Below, one piece after another: positions 1 through 6,000 of a stretch of DNA of 17,168 nt; position 1 is the stretch's first letter; every line of letters starts with the position of its first letter. The position numbers were made by a program. Source of the DNA: Elusimicrobiales bacterium (GTDB taxonomy: Bacteria > Elusimicrobiota > Elusimicrobia > Elusimicrobiales > UBA9959); assembly GCA_049972095.1 (NCBI GenBank), contig JBMFKQ010000031.1, positions 1-17,168 on the forward strand, written 5' to 3'.

Positions 1-3000
1 TTCTCATTCTTATCTTTGAGCTCTGAAATCTCTTCTTCAAGTTTTTTAATCTCGCCTTTCCATGATGAAAGGATTTTTTCATTCTCAGCTTTAATCCGTG
101 TGTTTTCTTCGCTAAGTACTCTATTTTCATTTGATATTTTTCTATTCTCAGCAGCTAACTTCTCATTCTTATCTTTGAGCTCTGAAATCTCTTCTTCAAG
201 TTTTTTAATCTCGCCTTTCCATGATGAAAGGATTTTCTCATTCTCAGCTTTAATCCGTGTGTTTTCTTCGCTAAGTACTCTATTTTCATCTGATATTTTT
301 CTATTCTCAGCTAATATCTCTTCATTTTGATCTTTAAGATCAGAGATCTCTTTTTCAAGCTTTTCAAGAGTAGTTTTGTATCTGTAAACCTCCTGCATCA
401 TAGTGTTTTTTGCAAGGTTAGCTTCAGATATTACAAGATCCTTTTCTTTAAGCTCCTTTTCATATTCAAACCTAACCTTCTCTATTTCTTTTTGTCTTTC
501 AAAAATCTCCTTTTCCTTTATTGACGAAAGCTCAGATTTAAGTTTTGAAACATCAGAACTGAGAACCTCATTTTTTTCTTTTAGAAGAGCTATCTCCTTT
601 TCTTTCTCTCCAAGATCTTTAACCTTATCAAGAAGCACATTTTTTTCTCTCTCATAATCCCTTATAACAGCATTGAGCCTTTCTATTTCTCTTCTTAAAC
701 CTTCACACTCCGAGATATATCTTTTATACTCTAACTCAGTTGTCTTAAAAGACTCAAGCTGGGCTTTGAGGGCTCTAATCTCATCATCCTTTCTGTTGAT
801 CACCCTTTGCCACTCAGCTTTTTCATCAAGGAATCTTCTTTCAAACTCCTTAAATCTTAGTATAAAATGTTCCTCTGCATTTCTGTATGCTTTTTCTTTT
901 TCAGAAATCTGAAGCTTTATATTCTCAAGAAGATTTTCCCTTTCCTGCACAAGCCTTGTCTCAAGCTCTTTGACCTTTGCTTTAAGCTCATCCCTTTCTC
1001 TCTCAAGTCTTTTGAGCTCCTCTGTCCTTTTTATTCTCTCCTCCGCTTCTCTAACTGAGGATTCAAGCTTTGATGTCATTATCTGTTCTTCCTGGCTTTT
1101 AAGGGTTAGAGCAATAATCTTTTCTCTTTCTTCCTGAATAGATTTTTCAAGCTCAGATATTTTATTCAAAAGCTTTTCATTCTCATTTTTCAGCTTCTCA
1201 ATATCAGAGCTATCAGATGGTTTAGTTAGACCACTTGCAGGTAATAAAGGAGAGAGTGATAACCTTGGAGGAGGTGTTATAGGTGAGCTAAGCGGTGATG
1301 GCATTGGTTTTTGTAATGGCTGATTTTTAGAAAGAGGAGGTTTTCCTTGAGGATTTATAAAGGGTGGAAGAGGAGGTTTTTTGTTGATATCAGCCATATA
1401 TATAGATTTTAAAATAAAGCTATTTCATTAAAATTAAATAAATGTTACATTCCGAGCTGCCTTTTAAGCTCATCAAGCCACGAGGAAAATTGGGTATCAC
1501 CACTCAAATCAACATACCTCTGATATGCATTAACAGCATCCTGATATCTTTCAAGTGCATAATAAACAGAGCCAAGATATTGCCATGCTAAAGCATTGTT
1601 TGGATCCTGTTGAATGACATATCTAAGATATTCCTCTGCCTGATTATAGTTCTGTTGATTATAAAACTCAACTGCGGCATTCATATAGTCTTCAAGTTCA
1701 TTTGATGAGGATTGTTGTGATGTTTTTTGAAGTTTTTGGTCTCTATTTATAGAAGATACATCACTGGAGTCAAGAATATAAACAAGTCCTTGTTCATTCC
1801 TTCTGTAGCTTAAAATCTTTCCCTCAGCCTCAAGAGTTTTAACTGCATCAAGGATCTTCATCTGAGCCTCATCTGACTGCTGTGGTGTAACCTCACCCAT
1901 ATACTCCATAACCTCTTTTATACTTGCCTGAGCACCTTGAGACATATTTTTAAAAAACTTCTCAACTATGTCAACAGAGGCATTTTTAAGAGCCTTTGCA
2001 AGGTCCTCCTGCGAAACACTTCTTATAACAATCTGAATATCCTTATCAGTAAAATTGATGAGGTCTTCAAAAGAAAGCATCACAGCTTTTATCTTATCAT
2101 AGATATCAGGTTTCTGATTTTTAAGATATTCAAGAACATTCTTCCTTGTCTGTGCATCAGCCTCTTCAAGTATTCTCATCAGCTGCTCTACCCCTCCCAT
2201 TACAAACTCCACATTCTCCTTTATATCCTTATCTATTGCCTCAATCTGCTCTCTTGTTGCCTGTTTTACTTTAACTGATTCTATAGCAACCCTTGATTGA
2301 AGTTCAAGAGGCAGCATTGCAAATACCTGTTTTGCCAACTCAGGCTTAATATAACTTAAAACTACAGCTATTATCCATGGATCCTCTTTTCTTAATAGAA
2401 AAAGGTAAACAAGCCTTTTTATATTCTCCTCATTTATATATGTAAAAGGTTCAAACTTTTTCATCTCCTCCTCCTCAGGTGGCGGTTCTTCCTCTTTCTG
2501 TGTAAATCTCATATCTATCTCCTGATGAGATTGCTGTTTTTCTTCACCCTCACCCTTTCCTTTACCACCTCCCTCTTCTCTTTTTTCCTCTATATTGACC
2601 TCGGCACCAGGTTTAGCAAGAAGGGCCTTTATATATCTTCTCAGAAAAGACCACAAAGGGCCAAAAAGATAGAGTAAAAGCAAAAGAAAAAGAAGGGCGT
2701 AGAGAAGAGGAAGATAAACTGATGGTTTTTTAAGATCATCCCATATATCAGTTTTTTTAAATCTTGTAGGTTTAAATATAACAACAGGTGGGTCCTTACC
2801 ATTGACTTTATAAGGAAGAAGAAGATCGTCTATTCTCTGTCTGGCAATCATAAGAAGTTCTTGAGAAATAGTCTCATCATGAACAACAGTAAGCTGAAAT
2901 CTTGTTATCAGAGGCTCAACAGAAAACATAACCTCTTCAATAGCCTTTGACTGCTGTGTTTGAGCACCATGTGCAGCCTCAGGTCTTCTATTTTGATCTC

Positions 3001-6000
3001 CTAAAATTGCCTTTGGTTTAGGTATTCCAGGAAGTATAAAATCAGTATCTGCAAGGCTTTGCCCTGCTCCTTTCTCTTTATATTGCTGAAGAACCCCAAC
3101 ACCTTCTTTTGTCTGCTCCTGCCTTTTTGTAACCACTGAAAATATAACATCTGCAAAGGCATATGCTCTGTTTTTCCCAAGCACAGGATCAAGTATGTAA
3201 TCATTAACCTTCTTCTCAATCTCTCTTCTAAATTCATTCTGCTTTTCAAGAATCATGCTGTTTATATCAGCAAACTTTTGGGCAGTTTCTTGAGAAAAAG
3301 AAAATACAGATAAACTAACAAACCCCAGGCTTACTTTAACAAATGCCTTCATAATAAGATTTTACCTTATATAAATTTGCAAATTTGTTTCCTTATGATT
3401 ACATATTCATTATTTAAATTTAATCTGATTAAGAAACTGTTTAACTATTTGATTGTTTGGATTTATCTCAAGGACTTTTTCCCATATTGCCTTTGCCTTT
3501 TCCTTCTGATCCATAAGAAAGAAGGCACTTCCCATAATCTCAAGAGCAGTCTCATTGTTGGGTTCAAGATCAAGTATATCATGAGCACGTCTGAGAGCAA
3601 CATCATACTTACCCTCATATATCGCTTGTCTTGCATCATAGATCTTCTGATCAACAAGTGTGAATATCTCCGGTCCCTCAGGCCTTCTTGTAAGCTCACT
3701 AACCCCAGCCTCTTTTTCAACCATATTGAGAAGCGAAAGCAGTTTTTCATCCTTTGGTCTTTTATTGTATGCATATCTAAGCACATTTACGGCAGCTCTG
3801 AGATCCTTACCATCGACATAAGCAATGATTCCCCTTCTTATGAGAGTCTCAACCTCATCAGTTCCAGTAGCATTTGGAACATATGTAACAGCTGCCTGAA
3901 GTCTGTCAAGCATCCTTCTTACCTCCTCATTCCCGGGATCAGCATCAAGCGCAACCTTAAGTCTTTCAACAGCCTTTGAGAATTGTCCAGCCTTAAAGTA
4001 ATTAAATGCCTGCCTTACAATTGCTCTTATCTCAGCTTCATGTATGGCTTTCTTAGATTCACCAAACCTCAGGCCCAGCGAAAACTTTGTTGTGTTACCA
4101 AGAGCATGTATGCCTTGAGCAACATCAAGGCTGAAGCTTTTAAACCTTATGCCTATTCCAAAGCTTGCCTCCTGAATTTGAGGATTTGCCATTATACCAA
4201 ACCTAAATGCCGCCCAATAAAGTGGCCAGTATTCACTACCAAATCTTATATTCTGACCACCGTTTTGAATCTTTGTAAGATCAAGATCAAATATAAGACT
4301 TCCCTTGAAAAGTGAAAATGACTGACCAAGTTTGAAAACCAGAGGAAAATCATCATCCGTATCACCGCTTTTCTTTGAAAAAATATTTTGAACACCAAAA
4401 GCCATTTTATAACTCCTTGAGACATTATAAAGCATCGCAAGATCTATTGTGTTAAATGAATCTTTTGATGTATCAACGCTTCGAGATATGTTTCTGATAG
4501 AAACTCCAAAAGAAAGTTTTTGTGAAATATTCCTCCCCCAGCTTATTCCCATCGCTTGCTCTTTAACGCTGAATGTGCCAAGGGTTTTAAGATCAACAAT
4601 CTCGTTTGTCTCAGGATCAACAGTTATGCTTACCTTTTCAAATCCTGATGAGTTCATTTGATTCATAAAAAAACCGAATATTCCTCTTGAAACCGTTGGA
4701 TGAACATAGCTTATGAAATTAATACTTGTCTGCCCAAACATCTGTGCCTGCATGAAAGAAAACTCTTTTCTTTCAAGAAGTGATAATGCAGCAGGATTCC
4801 AATATGTGGCTGTTGCATCATCACTGATAGCATAAAAAGCACCACCCATAGCAAGTGCCCTTGCCCCAACTCCATACGATAGAACCGCACCTGGCTGGCC
4901 ACCACTTTGAGAAAAAATTAATGAAAAAGGATAAAATAAAAAAACCGTTAGATACAAAACCTCTCTTCTGGCTTTATCTAACGGCAGTTTATATCTAAAT
5001 ATACTCTTCATAGTTTCGGCAGCCTAACCCCCCAACCTACTTGTTGGGGTCTTAGCTTTGCGCCCCTCGGTTACCCGAGGTTTGCTATTATCGTACTATA
5101 TTCTCATTACAGCCTTATTACCAAAGCCTTACAAACTTGTTATATTTATATTATAGCAGATTTTTTTTATATGTCAAGTCGATATTGACATGTCAATACT
5201 TATAGCCTCAAAGCTTAATTAAATAAAAACCCATTTTAGATAGCACAACAAAATAAAATTTTTACCTCTTTTCAAAATCCAGATATCTTGGAAGGATCTT
5301 GAAATTAACAGTGTAGCTGTATATTTTATCATCACAAGGAAACAGAAATTCAAGCGAAGTTTTTCTGCCTAAAAGTTTTCGTGGATGAATTCTTTCATCA
5401 AGCATAAAAAGATAGTTCCATACCCCCTTTTTTTTGTATGGTTTATCCACAGGGATTAGGGTTATCTCAACCTCATTATAAGGAGATACAACTGTAATGT
5501 TTGGAGCTTTTCCAGATATAATAGCGTTATCCTTTATTATAATTCTTCTTTTCTCTCCATATTCGTCTGTATACACAGCATCATTCCAGTTGATCTCAGA
5601 AAGATAGAGGCAGGTTGAATAAATTCTAACTTTTATCCCGCTTATCACATCATATTCAAATGAAGTCTTAACATGCCTGTCTTGAAAATAACCATCACTA
5701 AACTCAATCACTCCTCCATCCCTTAAAAGCTCAGGTTTTACAACACAGCACACATCAAATTTATTAAGCCATACATCTTTTTTAAAAGCAAGACAAGAAG
5801 AAAGGAGTATCACAAAAATTATAACTCCAACCTTTTTTATCATTAACTTGGATCAACCTTGAAAGCCCTCCATTATTGCAACACCACAGCTTGTTCCAAT
5901 CCTATCAGCCCCAGCTTCTATCATAGCAAGACAATCAGCAAAACCTCTAATCCCCCCTGCTGCTTTTATCTTTACCCTGTCAGATAGTGATGCCCTTAAA

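Follow-up and report, generated by a model that had tools for sequence, protein, structure and literature searches.

A putative flagellum-independent rotor-stator operon headed by a c-di-GMP riboswitch in an Elusimicrobiales bacterium

The operon and its continuation

The window analysed here is the whole 17,168-nucleotide contig JBMFKQ010000031.1 of an Elusimicrobiales bacterium (assembly GCA_049972095.1). Positions 1-5177, on the minus strand, hold the promoter-proximal half of a seven-gene operon, in the order promoter, c-di-GMP-I aptamer, outer-membrane barrel with TPR domain, 635-residue fusion protein and start of a coiled-coil gene (Table 1). The end of a second contig, C15, carries the C-terminus of a coiled-coil protein, followed by FlbD (4.3e-23), MotA (MotA_ExbB, 5.2e-27), MotB (MotB_plug and OmpA) and a lipobox protein. 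The join between the two contigs is supported because a contiguous relative (L005) carries both pieces in one 927-residue coiled-coil gene, the window piece matching residues 1-517 and the C15 piece residues 557-921. The operon and the join had been proposed in a first-pass annotation, and both stand, the latter by synteny.

Table 1. Features of the operon within the window
Feature	Position	Strand	Evidence
Sigma-70-type promoter, TTGACA-16-TATAAT with TG extension	5150..5177	-	12/12 consensus matches
c-di-GMP-I riboswitch aptamer	5015..5096	-	Rfam RF01051, 57.5 bits (gathering 35), E 3.4e-9, model positions 1-87 of 87
FadL/PorV/PorP-family outer-membrane barrel with C-terminal TPR, 533 aa	3410..5011	-	Pfam UPF0164, 25.4 bits, over cut-off
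Rotor fusion protein, 635 aa	1445..3352	-	Pfam FliG_C 6.1e-29, FliG_M 3.6e-11, TPR; PDB 1lkv 8.3e-37
Periplasmic FliF RBM3/S-ring-like domain, residues 28-200	2753..3271	-	Family profile, Foldseek, VIA
Single transmembrane helix, residues 209-238	2639..2728	-	Kyte-Doolittle 19-residue window, maximum 2.52
FliG middle and C-terminal (torque) domains, residues 301-520	1793..2452	-	1lkv 8.3e-37; Foldseek 1lkv 2.1e-11
Cytoplasmic C-terminal TPR tail, residues 550-633	1454..1705	-	TPR_2, TPR_16, TPR_1; pLDDT 90-98
5' part (465 codons) of giant cytoplasmic coiled-coil gene	1..1397	-	ORF 3-1397, open at window start

The promoter, a match to the consensus only, is the best of 24 promoter-like sites in positions 1-5400. 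The riboswitch scores well above its gathering threshold, as the first reading of the locus had it, and only 3 nt separate its 3' end from the barrel ATG at 5011. As the aptamer extends so close to the start codon, the most likely effect of c-di-GMP binding is to block initiation of translation; to go by this geometry alone, the machine would most likely be off at high c-di-GMP. Many genes of this genome have no clear Shine-Dalgarno sequence, an observation that weighs against such an off-switch. The genome holds 5 GGDEF genes. Of 36 related loci, 27 have an aptamer of the RF01051 clan ahead of the barrel gene, 7 of them in tandem.

Seven-gene loci recur among relatives, which are 51-87% identical over their full length; the proportion of complete loci, given earlier as 34 of 55, is 15 of 40 places in a wider sample. 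The barrel adjoins the fusion gene in 37 of these 40, and a gene of about 1600 residues intervenes between fusion and coiled coil in 15. In 13 of these 15 places, motAB is absent from the roughly 6 kb fetched downstream; where five such genomes were tested, MotA was found elsewhere, 56-68% identical in four and 37% in the fifth. A second copy (C23:15086-21883), which had also been claimed and is real, consists of a barrel-TPR protein, a kinase, MotA, a YscJ_FliF_C+FliG_M+FliG_C protein, a coiled coil and MotB. Its rotor protein matches YscJ_FliF_C at 2.3e-8 and aligns with the window fusion over residues 54-513 (E 6e-15).

The fusion protein and its stator

From its N-terminus, the fusion protein comprises a signal-like segment, a FliF RBM3-like domain, one transmembrane helix, an acidic linker, the FliG middle and C-terminal domains and a TPR tail. 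The topology predicted from these features puts the exported N-terminus and RBM3 on the periplasmic side of a single inner-membrane crossing, and the FliG domains and TPR on the cytoplasmic side. The membrane segment is the sole hydrophobic one found, and the AlphaFold model (mean pLDDT 77.4) has a helix at residues 210-245. A profile of the fusion family matches a bona fide FliF from a related locus at E 9.1e-9 (FliF residues 239-327 and 360-415). The top 18 Foldseek matches of the RBM3-like domain are all FliF MS/S-rings, and VIA returns 8z5v_A (Z 12.1, rmsd 5.6, 121 aligned), 6scn_A (Z 11.7, rmsd 4.8, 118 aligned) and 8z4d_1 (Z 10.5, rmsd 5.4, 119 aligned). The FliF-like domain and the FliG match described at first pass are thus both recovered, the former being RBM3-like in both profile and fold comparisons. 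The protein lacks RBM1-2 and a confident beta-collar, residues 84-137 being poorly modelled (pLDDT under 50). This weakens the case for a ring, into which the fusion presumably assembles.

Natural single-chain FliF-FliG proteins are described in Chlamydiaceae, which are presumed non-flagellated: about 330 residues with RBM2, one unassigned RBM and a FliG_M-like region only, and, in the account given there, no SpoIIIAG-like RBM3 (Bergeron 2016, PeerJ, PMC4768692). The protein here, in contrast, has RBM3 only, both FliG M and C plus TPR, and its own MotAB alongside. Covalent FliF-FliG chains, in mutants of Salmonella and in engineered Vibrio, still form an MS/S-ring (PDB 8z4d/8z4g; PMC11481574, PMC10941966), but these, as described there, join full-length FliF to full-length FliG inside a complete flagellum.

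MotA aligns over its full length with the flagellar stators 8ucs/6ysf (1.6e-52), and MotB has a plug and keeps the proton-binding Asp in 27 of 28 rows. By sequence, FlbD, MotA and MotB are predicted to make up a stator of the flagellar type, anchored to peptidoglycan and equipped with the proton-binding Asp. These features bear on the idea of a c-di-GMP-linked sensor or scaffold with no motor function, such as a surface-sensing platform. The conserved riboswitch, the histidine kinase within the paralogous operon and a kinase upstream in one relative (L031) would suit it, but the channel residues and plug of MotB, and MotA throughout, show the conservation of functional stators, and a scaffold would have no need of the Asp; we regard it as very improbable.

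The stator-rotor interface is altered. The fusion has K456, G473, E480, V481 and T489 at the torque-helix positions, and 2 of the 3 positive torque-helix charges of flagellar FliG are gone. One charge pair is always kept, the FliG Asp288-equivalent being Glu in 43/43 rows and the MotA Arg90-equivalent Lys or Arg in 26/26, whereas the second pair has gone from FliG and, in many rows, from MotA as well: the FliG Arg281-equivalent is lost in 42/43 rows, and the MotA Glu98-equivalent that would pair with it has become Gln or Arg in 13/26. The FliM-binding EHPQ motif reads EDPW in the window. Both EDPW and the Gly at the Arg281 position had been called invariant, which is true only of near relatives; over 43 rows, Gly is found in 34, and EDPW is confined to close kin. 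With torque charges lost and EHPQ altered, the interface may work differently or fail to transmit torque.

Tol-Pal/CpoB and ExbBD-TonB each combine an inner-membrane stator homologue, a TPR protein, a lipoprotein and an outer-membrane barrel. The operon's parts recall these lists, and together with the reduced charge interface they invite a non-rotating Tol/Ton-kind force transducer, in which MotAB energy would gate or stabilise the barrel through the fusion with no ring turning. The TPR protein CpoB is mentioned in Elusimicrobia (PMC12204202). Such a transducer is nevertheless unlikely: MotAB is partnered here by FliG_C joined to a ring-building RBM3 domain, which is known only from rotating rings, MotA belongs to the flagellar rather than the ExbB/TolQ type, with a full cytoplasmic torque domain, and FlbD/SwrD is a companion of the flagellar stator.

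Distribution in the phylum and relation to flagella

The genome (1.44 Mb, 96.5% complete) gives 0 matches for FHIPEP, Flagellin_N, YscJ_FliF and FliMN_C, controls being positive, so that FlhA, flagellin, FliF RBM1-2 and FliM/N all go unmatched; this agrees with the absence of FlhA, flagellin and FliM/N noted at first pass. Among 401 Elusimicrobiota genomes, FliG_C is found in 175, as open frames without stops, across 92 of 123 genera; MotA-like genes occur in 178 and FHIPEP (FlhA) in 9. The family tallies of FliG_C and MotA-like genes are nearly identical (f2, 2/118 and 2/118; f16, 1/89 and 0/89), counts taken among kin and hence non-independent. Three FlhA-positive genomes (G064, G240, G319) have a FliG frame of about 335-346 residues plus another of about 650-675, and in a quick tree a single branch (SH-aLRT 99) sets the canonical FliGs apart. 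That the flagellated genomes checked hold both canonical FliG and the fusion points to a separate machine and not a relic.

A decaying remnant of an ancestral flagellum, whose genes no longer make a working machine, would account for the silence of the four other flagellar families tested and for the lost torque-helix arginines and EHPQ motif. It is scarcely credible in view of the stop-free frames spread over so many genera, the full-length identity among relatives, the operon's own conserved riboswitch, the complete canonical FliF/FliG/FlhA set beside the fusion operon in flagellated relatives, the conservation of non-flagellar partners (barrel, coiled coil, lipoprotein) and two copies retained in so small a genome.

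What the operon has in common with the flagellar motor core is the RBM3 ring domain, both FliG domains (middle and torque), a MotA of flagellar type over its full length, a MotB bearing the plug, the Asp and an OmpA-like domain, FlbD and the order flbD-motA-motB. It differs in that its genome has no match for export gate, flagellin or FliM/N; in that ring and rotor are one chain, without FliF RBM1-2 and FliG_N; in E[DE]PW for EHPQ and the loss of two torque-helix arginines; and in its added TPR tail, PorV/PorP-like barrel with TPR, coiled coil, lipoprotein and c-di-GMP riboswitch.

The presence of orphan motAB, flbD and fliG in the phylum is already known. A 2022 preprint reports that most free-living Elusimicrobiota have these homologues and no flagellum structural genes, calls their role unclear and takes flbD as a Caulobacter-type transcription activator (bioRxiv 10.1101/2022.07.08.499144). 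It is a remark on gene content; the operon, fusion, barrel, coiled coil, riboswitch and interface do not figure in its available text.

A rotor-stator pair re-used outside the flagellum, as first proposed, fits every sequence-level test. This reading is supported by the RBM3-like domain and FliG M+C with flagellar-type MotA/MotB where export gate, flagellin and switch have no match, by the fusion beside canonical FliG in flagellated relatives and by the nearly coincident FliG_C and MotA-like distributions. The best explanation of the whole, to which we give a probability of roughly 0.7, is that the window holds the promoter-proximal half of an operon for a flagellum-independent, ion-driven rotor-stator machine. 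Its domain topology suggests that this machine spans the envelope and rotates.

Outer-membrane partners and possible output

The barrel protein comprises a barrel (about residues 35-320) and a TPR domain (about 329-530). The PorV-like barrel with C-terminal TPR described earlier is borne out: UPF0164 lies above cut-off, Toluene_X below it (21.8 bits), and several TPR families match (TPR_19, 3.4e-11). With phmmer it matches a PorV-positive barrel on C12 (E 4e-13) and the paralogous barrel on C23 (3.5e-17), and its neighbour clusters in the Atlas bear the names PorP/SprF and PorV/PorQ + TPR. Type-IX-like C-terminal signals occur in this genome on giant surface proteins: five ORFs of more than 1000 residues have a CTD-type match, each directly followed by a barrel of the window-barrel family. 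In relatives L019, L039 and L072, the coiled-coil gene is succeeded by genes for a CHU_C protein and a barrel. An SprA-like match is weak (81 bits, cut-off 200), and searches for GldL and GldM gave 0 matches, the controls being likewise silent. Paralogy and neighbourhood suggest a tie between motor and CTD proteins.

The coiled-coil piece has an N-terminal KPPLPP motif, its PPLPP conserved in 35 sequences, and finishes, where the contig breaks off, in a tandem repeat of 53 codons. No hydrophobic segment or signal was detected in it, and domain searches found no enzyme or effector domain in the coiled coil. The ring might instead turn or position this coiled coil, as a Zorya-like tail or AglZ-like cytoskeletal scaffold, the barrel being a mere anchor. 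The coiled-coil gene indeed follows the fusion gene, directly or one gene later, in nearly all loci; its product has no signal or membrane segment and keeps its proline motif, and the C-terminus of the fusion is a cytoplasmic TPR module of the peptide-binding kind. We consider a purely cytoplasmic output quite unlikely, as it gives no account of the conserved RBM3 domain in the periplasm, the periplasmic TPR tail of the barrel or the lipoprotein, and the coiled coil bears no effector domain in the searches.

For the rotary machine, the following working may be proposed. Fusion proteins would build a ring, and MotA5B2 units would push on its FliG_C domains through the retained pair of MotA Lys/Arg (Arg90 position) and FliG Glu (Asp288 position), turning it one way only, with no switch complex involved. 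On its periplasmic side the ring would meet the TPR tail of the PorV/PorP-like barrel, and the lipoprotein, while the fusion's TPR tail or the FliG_M side would hold the giant coiled coil in the cytoplasm. Force or movement could then be passed to the same-family outer-membrane barrels located behind giant surface proteins with type-IX-like signals; we offer this tentatively, as the foremost among possible outputs.

By its parts list the operon resembles the Agl-Glt gliding machinery of Myxococcus, which has a MotAB/TolQR-type motor, TPR proteins, outer-membrane barrels, lipoproteins and the long cytoplasmic coiled-coil AglZ and is not known to have FliG or a FliF domain. GldLM/PorLM, the ion-driven inner-membrane stator-type motor of type IX secretion and gliding, serves PorV/PorP-family barrels and surface proteins with C-terminal signals, both of which occur here, but the motor here is MotAB on a FliG ring and not GldL5M2 reaching across the periplasm (PMC8986121; bioRxiv 10.1101/2024.09.23.614571).

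The operon probably encodes a non-flagellar rotary envelope motor that may act on surface proteins. If the proposed output is true, adhesin handling or gliding-like motion would be its business. The c-di-GMP-controlled union of a flagellar torque core, a barrel and a coiled coil in a flagellum-less bacterium points to an undescribed ion-driven envelope machine.

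Operon layout and second copy

The rotor operon starts on the minus strand of the window with a c-di-GMP-I aptamer and genes for a barrel-TPR protein (a predicted outer-membrane barrel of the FadL/PorV/PorP family), a FliF/FliG fusion (the rotor protein) and a coiled coil. The last 3.3 kb of another contig, C15, carry in matching orientation the C-terminus of a coiled-coil gene, open at the contig end, followed by genes for FlbD (profile match at 4.3e-23), MotA, MotB and a protein with a lipobox. In L005, a related locus whose fusion protein is 72% identical, a single contig holds the aptamer and the genes for the barrel-TPR protein, the fusion, a 927-aa coiled coil, FlbD, MotA, MotB and the lipoprotein, flanked on either side by unrelated genes. 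Residues 1-517 of the L005 coiled coil are matched by the window piece and residues 557-921 by the C15 piece. Because the L005 order is contiguous and both coiled-coil pieces match one gene, we accept the predicted joining of the two contigs, which the first-pass annotation had based on synteny. A 159-nt tandem repeat (53 codons, two near-identical copies) at window positions 1-330, inside the minus-strand coiled-coil gene, is the likely cause of the assembly break at the contig edge. The operon might also be viewed as a misassembled flagellar locus; this was rejected because many genomes show the genes in the same order on contiguous contigs.

On C15 the lipoprotein gene is immediately followed by one for a DUF6754 membrane protein (2.6e-110). 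This second gene is probably outside the operon, since it is not found downstream of the lipoprotein gene in L005. The remainder of the window (5262-17168) is occupied by ordinary metabolic genes, namely those for DeoC, TIM, an aminotransferase, an M15 peptidase and a fumarate reductase/succinate dehydrogenase set. Two DNA sequencing datasets, from two studies and labelled hot springs metagenome, contain a match; no RNA datasets are listed.

A diverged second operon is indeed present at C23:15086-21883. It encodes a barrel-TPR protein (with a PorV match), a small histidine kinase, MotA, a 509-aa protein with YscJ_FliF_C, FliG_M and FliG_C domains, a coiled coil and MotB. The rotor proteins of the window and of C23 align over residues 54-513. 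No riboswitch was detected by Rfam at the C23 operon or on the C15 end.

Coordinates of the features discussed (positions without a contig or locus name refer to the window)
Feature	Position	Strand	Basis
Candidate sigma-70-type promoter, TTGACA-16-TATAAT with TG extension, perfect	5177-5150	minus	Consensus match
c-di-GMP-I aptamer, RF01051	5096-5015	minus	Rfam, 57.5 bits against a gathering cut-off of 35
Barrel-TPR gene, 533 aa	5011-3410	minus	UPF0164 over cut-off, FadL-type Toluene_X under, TPR repeats
Rotor fusion gene, 635 aa	3352-1445	minus	FliG_M, FliG_C and C-terminal TPR matches
Coiled-coil gene, open at contig edge	from 1397	minus	ORF runs off the contig
984-aa ORF	9538-12492	minus	Faint NHL (E 0.004) and transglutaminase-core (E 0.0015) matches only
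DUF6754 gene	C15:31698-32990 (L003:3699-4991)	minus	
Giant-ORF barrel pairs	C15:10546-11801, C7:37297-38455, C12:31555-32809, C18:14790-15988, C11:32176-33506		Barrel directly after ORF
1750-aa ORF	C28:3633-8885 of the same genome, G000 (L060:3633-8885)	minus	TIGR04189
Gap protein genes (about 1600 aa, C-terminal TPR)	L010:5211-10019, L011:2293-7143		
Operon without barrel or coiled coil (family f5)	L025:7298-12319		
Loci with RF03167 as best model	L006:191-272; L010, L016, L023, L024, L030, L032, L035, L036, L043		Rfam

The rotor fusion and its predicted contact with the stator

An AlphaFold model of the 635-aa fusion, built on an alignment of 42 relatives (mean pLDDT 77.4), begins with a signal-like helix. 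This is followed by a predicted periplasmic domain of alpha-beta-beta-alpha-beta order (residues 30-196; the insert at 84-137 is poorly modelled), one transmembrane helix (210-245 in the model; hydrophobic segment 209-238), a predicted disordered acidic linker (248-291), the modelled FliG middle and C-terminal domains (292-519) and three predicted TPR pairs (550-633). The earlier assignment of the two FliG domains holds: Pfam gives 100.9 bits for FliG_C and 43.6 bits for FliG_M, and T. maritima FliG (1lkv) aligns with this region at 8.3e-37. FliG_N, the domain that binds the FliF tail, was not found in the fusion, its sole match (0.0024) overlapping the M domain. RBM1-RBM2 (Pfam YscJ_FliF) gave no match in the fusion or anywhere in the genome.

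The profile of the periplasmic domain matches a genuine FliF, that of the flagellated Elusimicrobium L042 (its own YscJ_FliF match being 1.4e-64), with an E value of 9.1e-9. The match falls into two blocks, FliF residues 239-327 and 360-415, the pattern expected for an RBM3 split by the collar. When the domain was modelled on its own (from 30 sequences; pLDDT over 90 in the core), Foldseek ranks 1 to 18 were all FliF MS/S-ring chains, followed by SpoIIIAG. A VIA all-against-all search likewise places FliF first (8z5v_A, Z 12.1, rmsd 5.6, 121 aligned; 6scn_A, Z 11.7, rmsd 4.8, 118 aligned; 8z4d_1, Z 10.5), with EscJ and PrgK ranking after it near Z 9. In the C23 paralogue, the YscJ_FliF_C match noted in the first-pass annotation was reproduced by Pfam at 2.3e-8. 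On these profile and fold matches, the periplasmic domain of the fusion and the RBM3/S-ring part of FliF are homologous. RBM1-RBM2 and FliG_N being absent, the fusion therefore links the C-terminal half of FliF straight to a FliG devoid of its N domain, with an export signal replacing the first transmembrane helix. FliF assembles as a ring of about 33-34 subunits. A shorter and differently built FliF-FliG fusion, from Chlamydiaceae, was described by Bergeron (2016; PMC4768692).

Solved flagellar stators match MotA along its entire length, among them those of C. sporogenes (8ucs_C/6ysf_E, 1.6e-52, residues 12-268), PomA (3.4e-43) and the B. subtilis, Aquifex and C. jejuni proteins, and the likeness to flagellar MotA/PomA includes the cytoplasmic torque domain. 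The likely start of MotA is Met11, which is preceded by a GAGGTGAGGG motif. By profile matches, the C15 MotB has a plug (MotB_plug, 6.9e-12) and an OmpA (peptidoglycan) domain (9.5e-22); it also carries a YADLMT motif with the transmembrane-helix Asp, kept in 27 of 28 rows. The pair could conceivably belong to a Zorya-type defence system. This was rejected, as MotA is without the long tail and no ZorC/D-like genes adjoin the operon in the window, at the C15 end or in L005.

For the torque helix we use the E. coli FliG numbering, K264, R281, D288, D289 and R297, and for MotA R90 and E98. The charge pairs R90/D288-289 and E98/R281 are named in PMC12505986. In the window fusion the EHPQ motif reads EDPW, and the five FliG positions read K, G, E, V and T; a canonical EHPQ(R) FliM-binding motif and a full charged torque helix were thus not found in this protein. 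The canonical FliG of a flagellated relative has Arg, Arg, Glu, Asp and Lys at the same positions. Among 43 membrane-anchored rows (L005 and L008 being the same place), the equivalent of Asp288 is always Glu and that of Asp289 is Glu in 23. The Arg281 equivalent is Gly in 34, Asn in 6, and Ser, Thr or Arg in one each, while none of the 43 has a positive residue at the Arg297 position. On the MotA side, the R90 and E98 equivalents are Lys and Glu in the genome under study; across 26 rows the former is Lys or Arg without exception and the latter is Glu in 13, Gln in 12 and Arg in one. The Lys is number 91 when counting begins at Met11, and the Glu at the Asp288 position of the window fusion is Glu480. 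In these alignments, one charge pair is strictly kept on both proteins, whereas the other has been given up on FliG and, in half the rows, on MotA as well. Since one pair is kept on both sides and the other lost, we read this pattern as the probable mark of a working but simplified contact. Switching by the motor is unlikely because FliM/FliN were not found and the EHPQ motif is changed.

Distribution in a phylum almost without flagella

The genome (96.5% complete, 58 contigs) has no match to FHIPEP (the FlhA export gate), Flagellin_N or FliMN_C (the FliM/FliN switch complex); the corresponding controls were matched in 5, 4 and 4 known genomes. Together with the missing YscJ_FliF, whose control was likewise matched, this upholds the earlier description of a non-flagellated genome as far as these four families go. 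Among 401 sampled genomes of the phylum, FliG_C is present in 175 (92 of 123 genera), a MotA-like gene (E up to 1e-25) in 178 and FHIPEP in 9. As plain counts among genomes that are kin, carrying no statistical test, FliG_C and MotA have almost equal tallies by family (43/46 and 44/46 in f1, 2/118 and 2/118 in f2, 1/89 and 0/89 in f16, 42/48 and 41/48 in f8).

The FlhA-positive genomes are G064, G240, G319, G325, G062, G104, G168, G385 and G121. Among the rows listed, six of the nine show a FliG frame of canonical length (about 335-356 aa) and four a frame of fusion length (about 640-675 aa). G064, G240 and G319 carry both, and the short frame of G168 encodes a canonical FliG_N+M+C protein adjoining FliF. 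A minority of the phylum thus seems to be genuinely flagellated and to carry the two systems together.

A quick, unrooted maximum-likelihood tree built on 69 rows of the MC region places 19 canonical FliGs on one side of a branch with an SH-aLRT of 99 and every membrane-anchored form on the other. The 19 comprise the Elusimicrobial canonical FliG and 18 from outside the phylum of 323-344 aa, a biased sample drawn from best-scoring matches. Another explanation would be that the operon is the decaying remnant of a flagellum. The distribution in the phylum, the co-existence with canonical FliG, the tree and the 51-87% full-length identity among relatives, taken together, rule this out for practical purposes. 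The clusters of 10 distant representatives carry hardly any taxonomy; one 4.9-kb contig in them is labelled Thermoprotei archaeon, which is probably a binning label.

Conservation of the operon was followed in 40 related places (L006 and L007-L046, minus the flagellar control L042). A barrel gene lies directly upstream of the fusion gene in 37, L022, L025 and L026 being without a barrel match. All seven genes are present in 15 places, and four more, of family f11, are short only of a recognisable lipoprotein. In 15 of the 40 the coiled coil does not follow the fusion directly but after a gap of about 4.7-5.7 kb. Translation of the gap gene in two loci gave a coiled-coil protein of 1602 or 1616 aa ending in TPR; equivalent gaps are seen in 13 other loci. 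In 13 of the 15 gapped places no motAB lies within the ~6 kb fetched downstream, and in L028 and L045 motAB follows the coiled coil. Five gapped genomes were tested: four have elsewhere a MotA 56-68% identical to that of our genome, and the fifth one that is 37% identical. Family f5 shows the order fusion-FlbD-MotA-MotB, and in the f5-type operon of G064 a 1674-aa bacterial alpha-2-macroglobulin comes next.

No hydrophobic segment was found in the coiled coil. Its N-terminus carries a conserved M-x-[ED]-x-K...PPLPP motif and then a proline-rich stretch (35 sequences). FlbD is of the SwrD family, which, according to PMC13740483, forms hexameric rings, the contact with MotA being modelled. The lipoprotein has no Pfam match; its family comprises only Elusimicrobiota clusters in the Atlas, where a weak CarboxypepD_reg-like lead (TM 0.37-0.43) stays under the bar.

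Outer-membrane barrels, c-di-GMP and possible output

The N-terminal two thirds of the window barrel match barrel families, with no PorV row, and its last 200 residues are TPR. PorV is matched by the C23 paralogous barrel (28.1 bits) and by a barrel on C12 (33.9 bits), and phmmer links all three (E 4e-13 to 3.5e-17). The genome has about a dozen members of this family. The two with a recognised TPR tail head the two rotor operons, three other longer members lying outside the TPR scan. An even-stranded barrel has both termini on the periplasmic side, so the TPR tail is predicted to be placed to meet the periplasmic ring. The Atlas neighbours of the barrel gene are barrel-plus-TPR clusters mostly from Elusimicrobiota, but two of the clusters are most frequent in Candidatus Zixiibacteriota and Candidatus Eiseniibacteriota. 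The barrel-TPR design may extend past the phylum, and the machine perhaps with it.

To our knowledge, Elusimicrobiota are not known for type IX secretion. Type-IX-like C-terminal sorting domains (Por_Secre_tail or CHU_C) are matched at seven places in the genome, three of them over the Pfam cut-off (Por_Secre_tail 38.8 and 29.3 bits, CHU_C 28.1 bits). Five of the sorting-domain ORFs exceed 1000 aa (1041-2432 aa), and each is directly followed by a family barrel gene of 307-358 aa. In Bacteroidota, type-B CTD proteins are reportedly paired with PorP/SprF-like barrels in the same arrangement. In the relatives L019, L039 and L072, a giant fn3/Ig protein with CHU_C and a barrel come right after the coiled-coil gene; L066 has a similar pair without a CHU_C match. 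A 1750-aa ORF adjoining LptF/LptG, in which Pfam found no match, scores 81 bits (E 1e-23) against a cut-off of 200 with the SprA model TIGR04189 and is possibly a distant SprA-like outer-membrane protein. The SprA_N, PorP_SprF, GldM and GldL profiles gave no match in this genome and none in the control genomes alike.

The aptamer matches its full model (positions 1-87 of 87) and ends 3 nt before the barrel ATG; throughout the window's own locus class it abuts the start codon. Of 36 related loci scanned with Rfam, 27 have one or more c-di-GMP-I clan aptamers upstream of the barrel gene and on the same strand. The aptamers are in tandem in seven, of which L016, L030 and L035 have one of each kind, and the GGC variant RF03167 is the best model for at least one aptamer in ten loci. 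The genome has five GGDEF genes, and many of its genes are without a clear Shine-Dalgarno sequence. Because the ribosome must load on sequence forming the 3' half of the folded aptamer, we infer from this geometry that c-di-GMP represses translation.

The observation made in the first-pass annotation is thus confirmed and its flagellar-type rotor-stator interpretation supported, function and rotation being proposals drawn from sequence. We file the operon as an ion-driven, stator-powered envelope machine made from a flagellar rotor and stator, and not as a flagellum, with a putative function and putative rotation. As the barrel family follows giant sorting-domain proteins and its TPR-tailed members head the rotor operons, we prefer, from paralogy and neighbourhood, the outer membrane or the cell surface as the likely site of output. 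A more specific model, to which we give about one chance in five, assumes that the single-chain RBM3/FliG ring and MotAB are the engine of a type-IX-like system. By way of the TPR tail of a PorV/PorP-like barrel, the ring would be linked to giant adhesins that paralogous barrels hold. The engine would move or deploy these adhesins, for gliding or surface remodelling without flagella or GldLM, and c-di-GMP would shut it off at the riboswitch.

As far as we know, previous work has regarded FliG and the FliF ring solely as components of the flagellum. The known uses of the ion-driven 5:2 motor family include flagella, Ton/Tol, gliding/T9SS and Zorya. In the literature outside subscription journals, no description was found of the operon, the RBM3-FliG-TPR fusion, its partners, the riboswitch or the machine. 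The sole related item found is a gene-content remark in a 2022 preprint on magnetotactic Elusimicrobiota (bioRxiv 10.1101/2022.07.08.499144): most free-living members are without flagellum structural genes yet have motAB, flbD and fliG homologues, whose role is called unclear, and flagellum-less motility is left open there.

Here, a putative FliG/FliF-type ring with MotAB is a self-contained module, kept across most free-living lineages of a phylum almost without flagella and endowed with its own predicted second-messenger switch and new partners. If the proposed machine is real, it would represent a new class of rotary machine that spans the envelope, and a living case of the FliG/MotAB torque module at work in the absence of type III export, with implications for the origin of the flagellum. 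If it rotates, it would add a further use of the 5:2 motor, the first to re-use the flagellar rotor itself. With one chain, no switch and one charge pair, it would offer a natural minimal system for stator-rotor coupling. A modular origin of the flagellum, with the torque module separate from the export module, would become testable, and the operon may supply the engine behind the unexplained motility of Elusimicrobiota that have no flagella.
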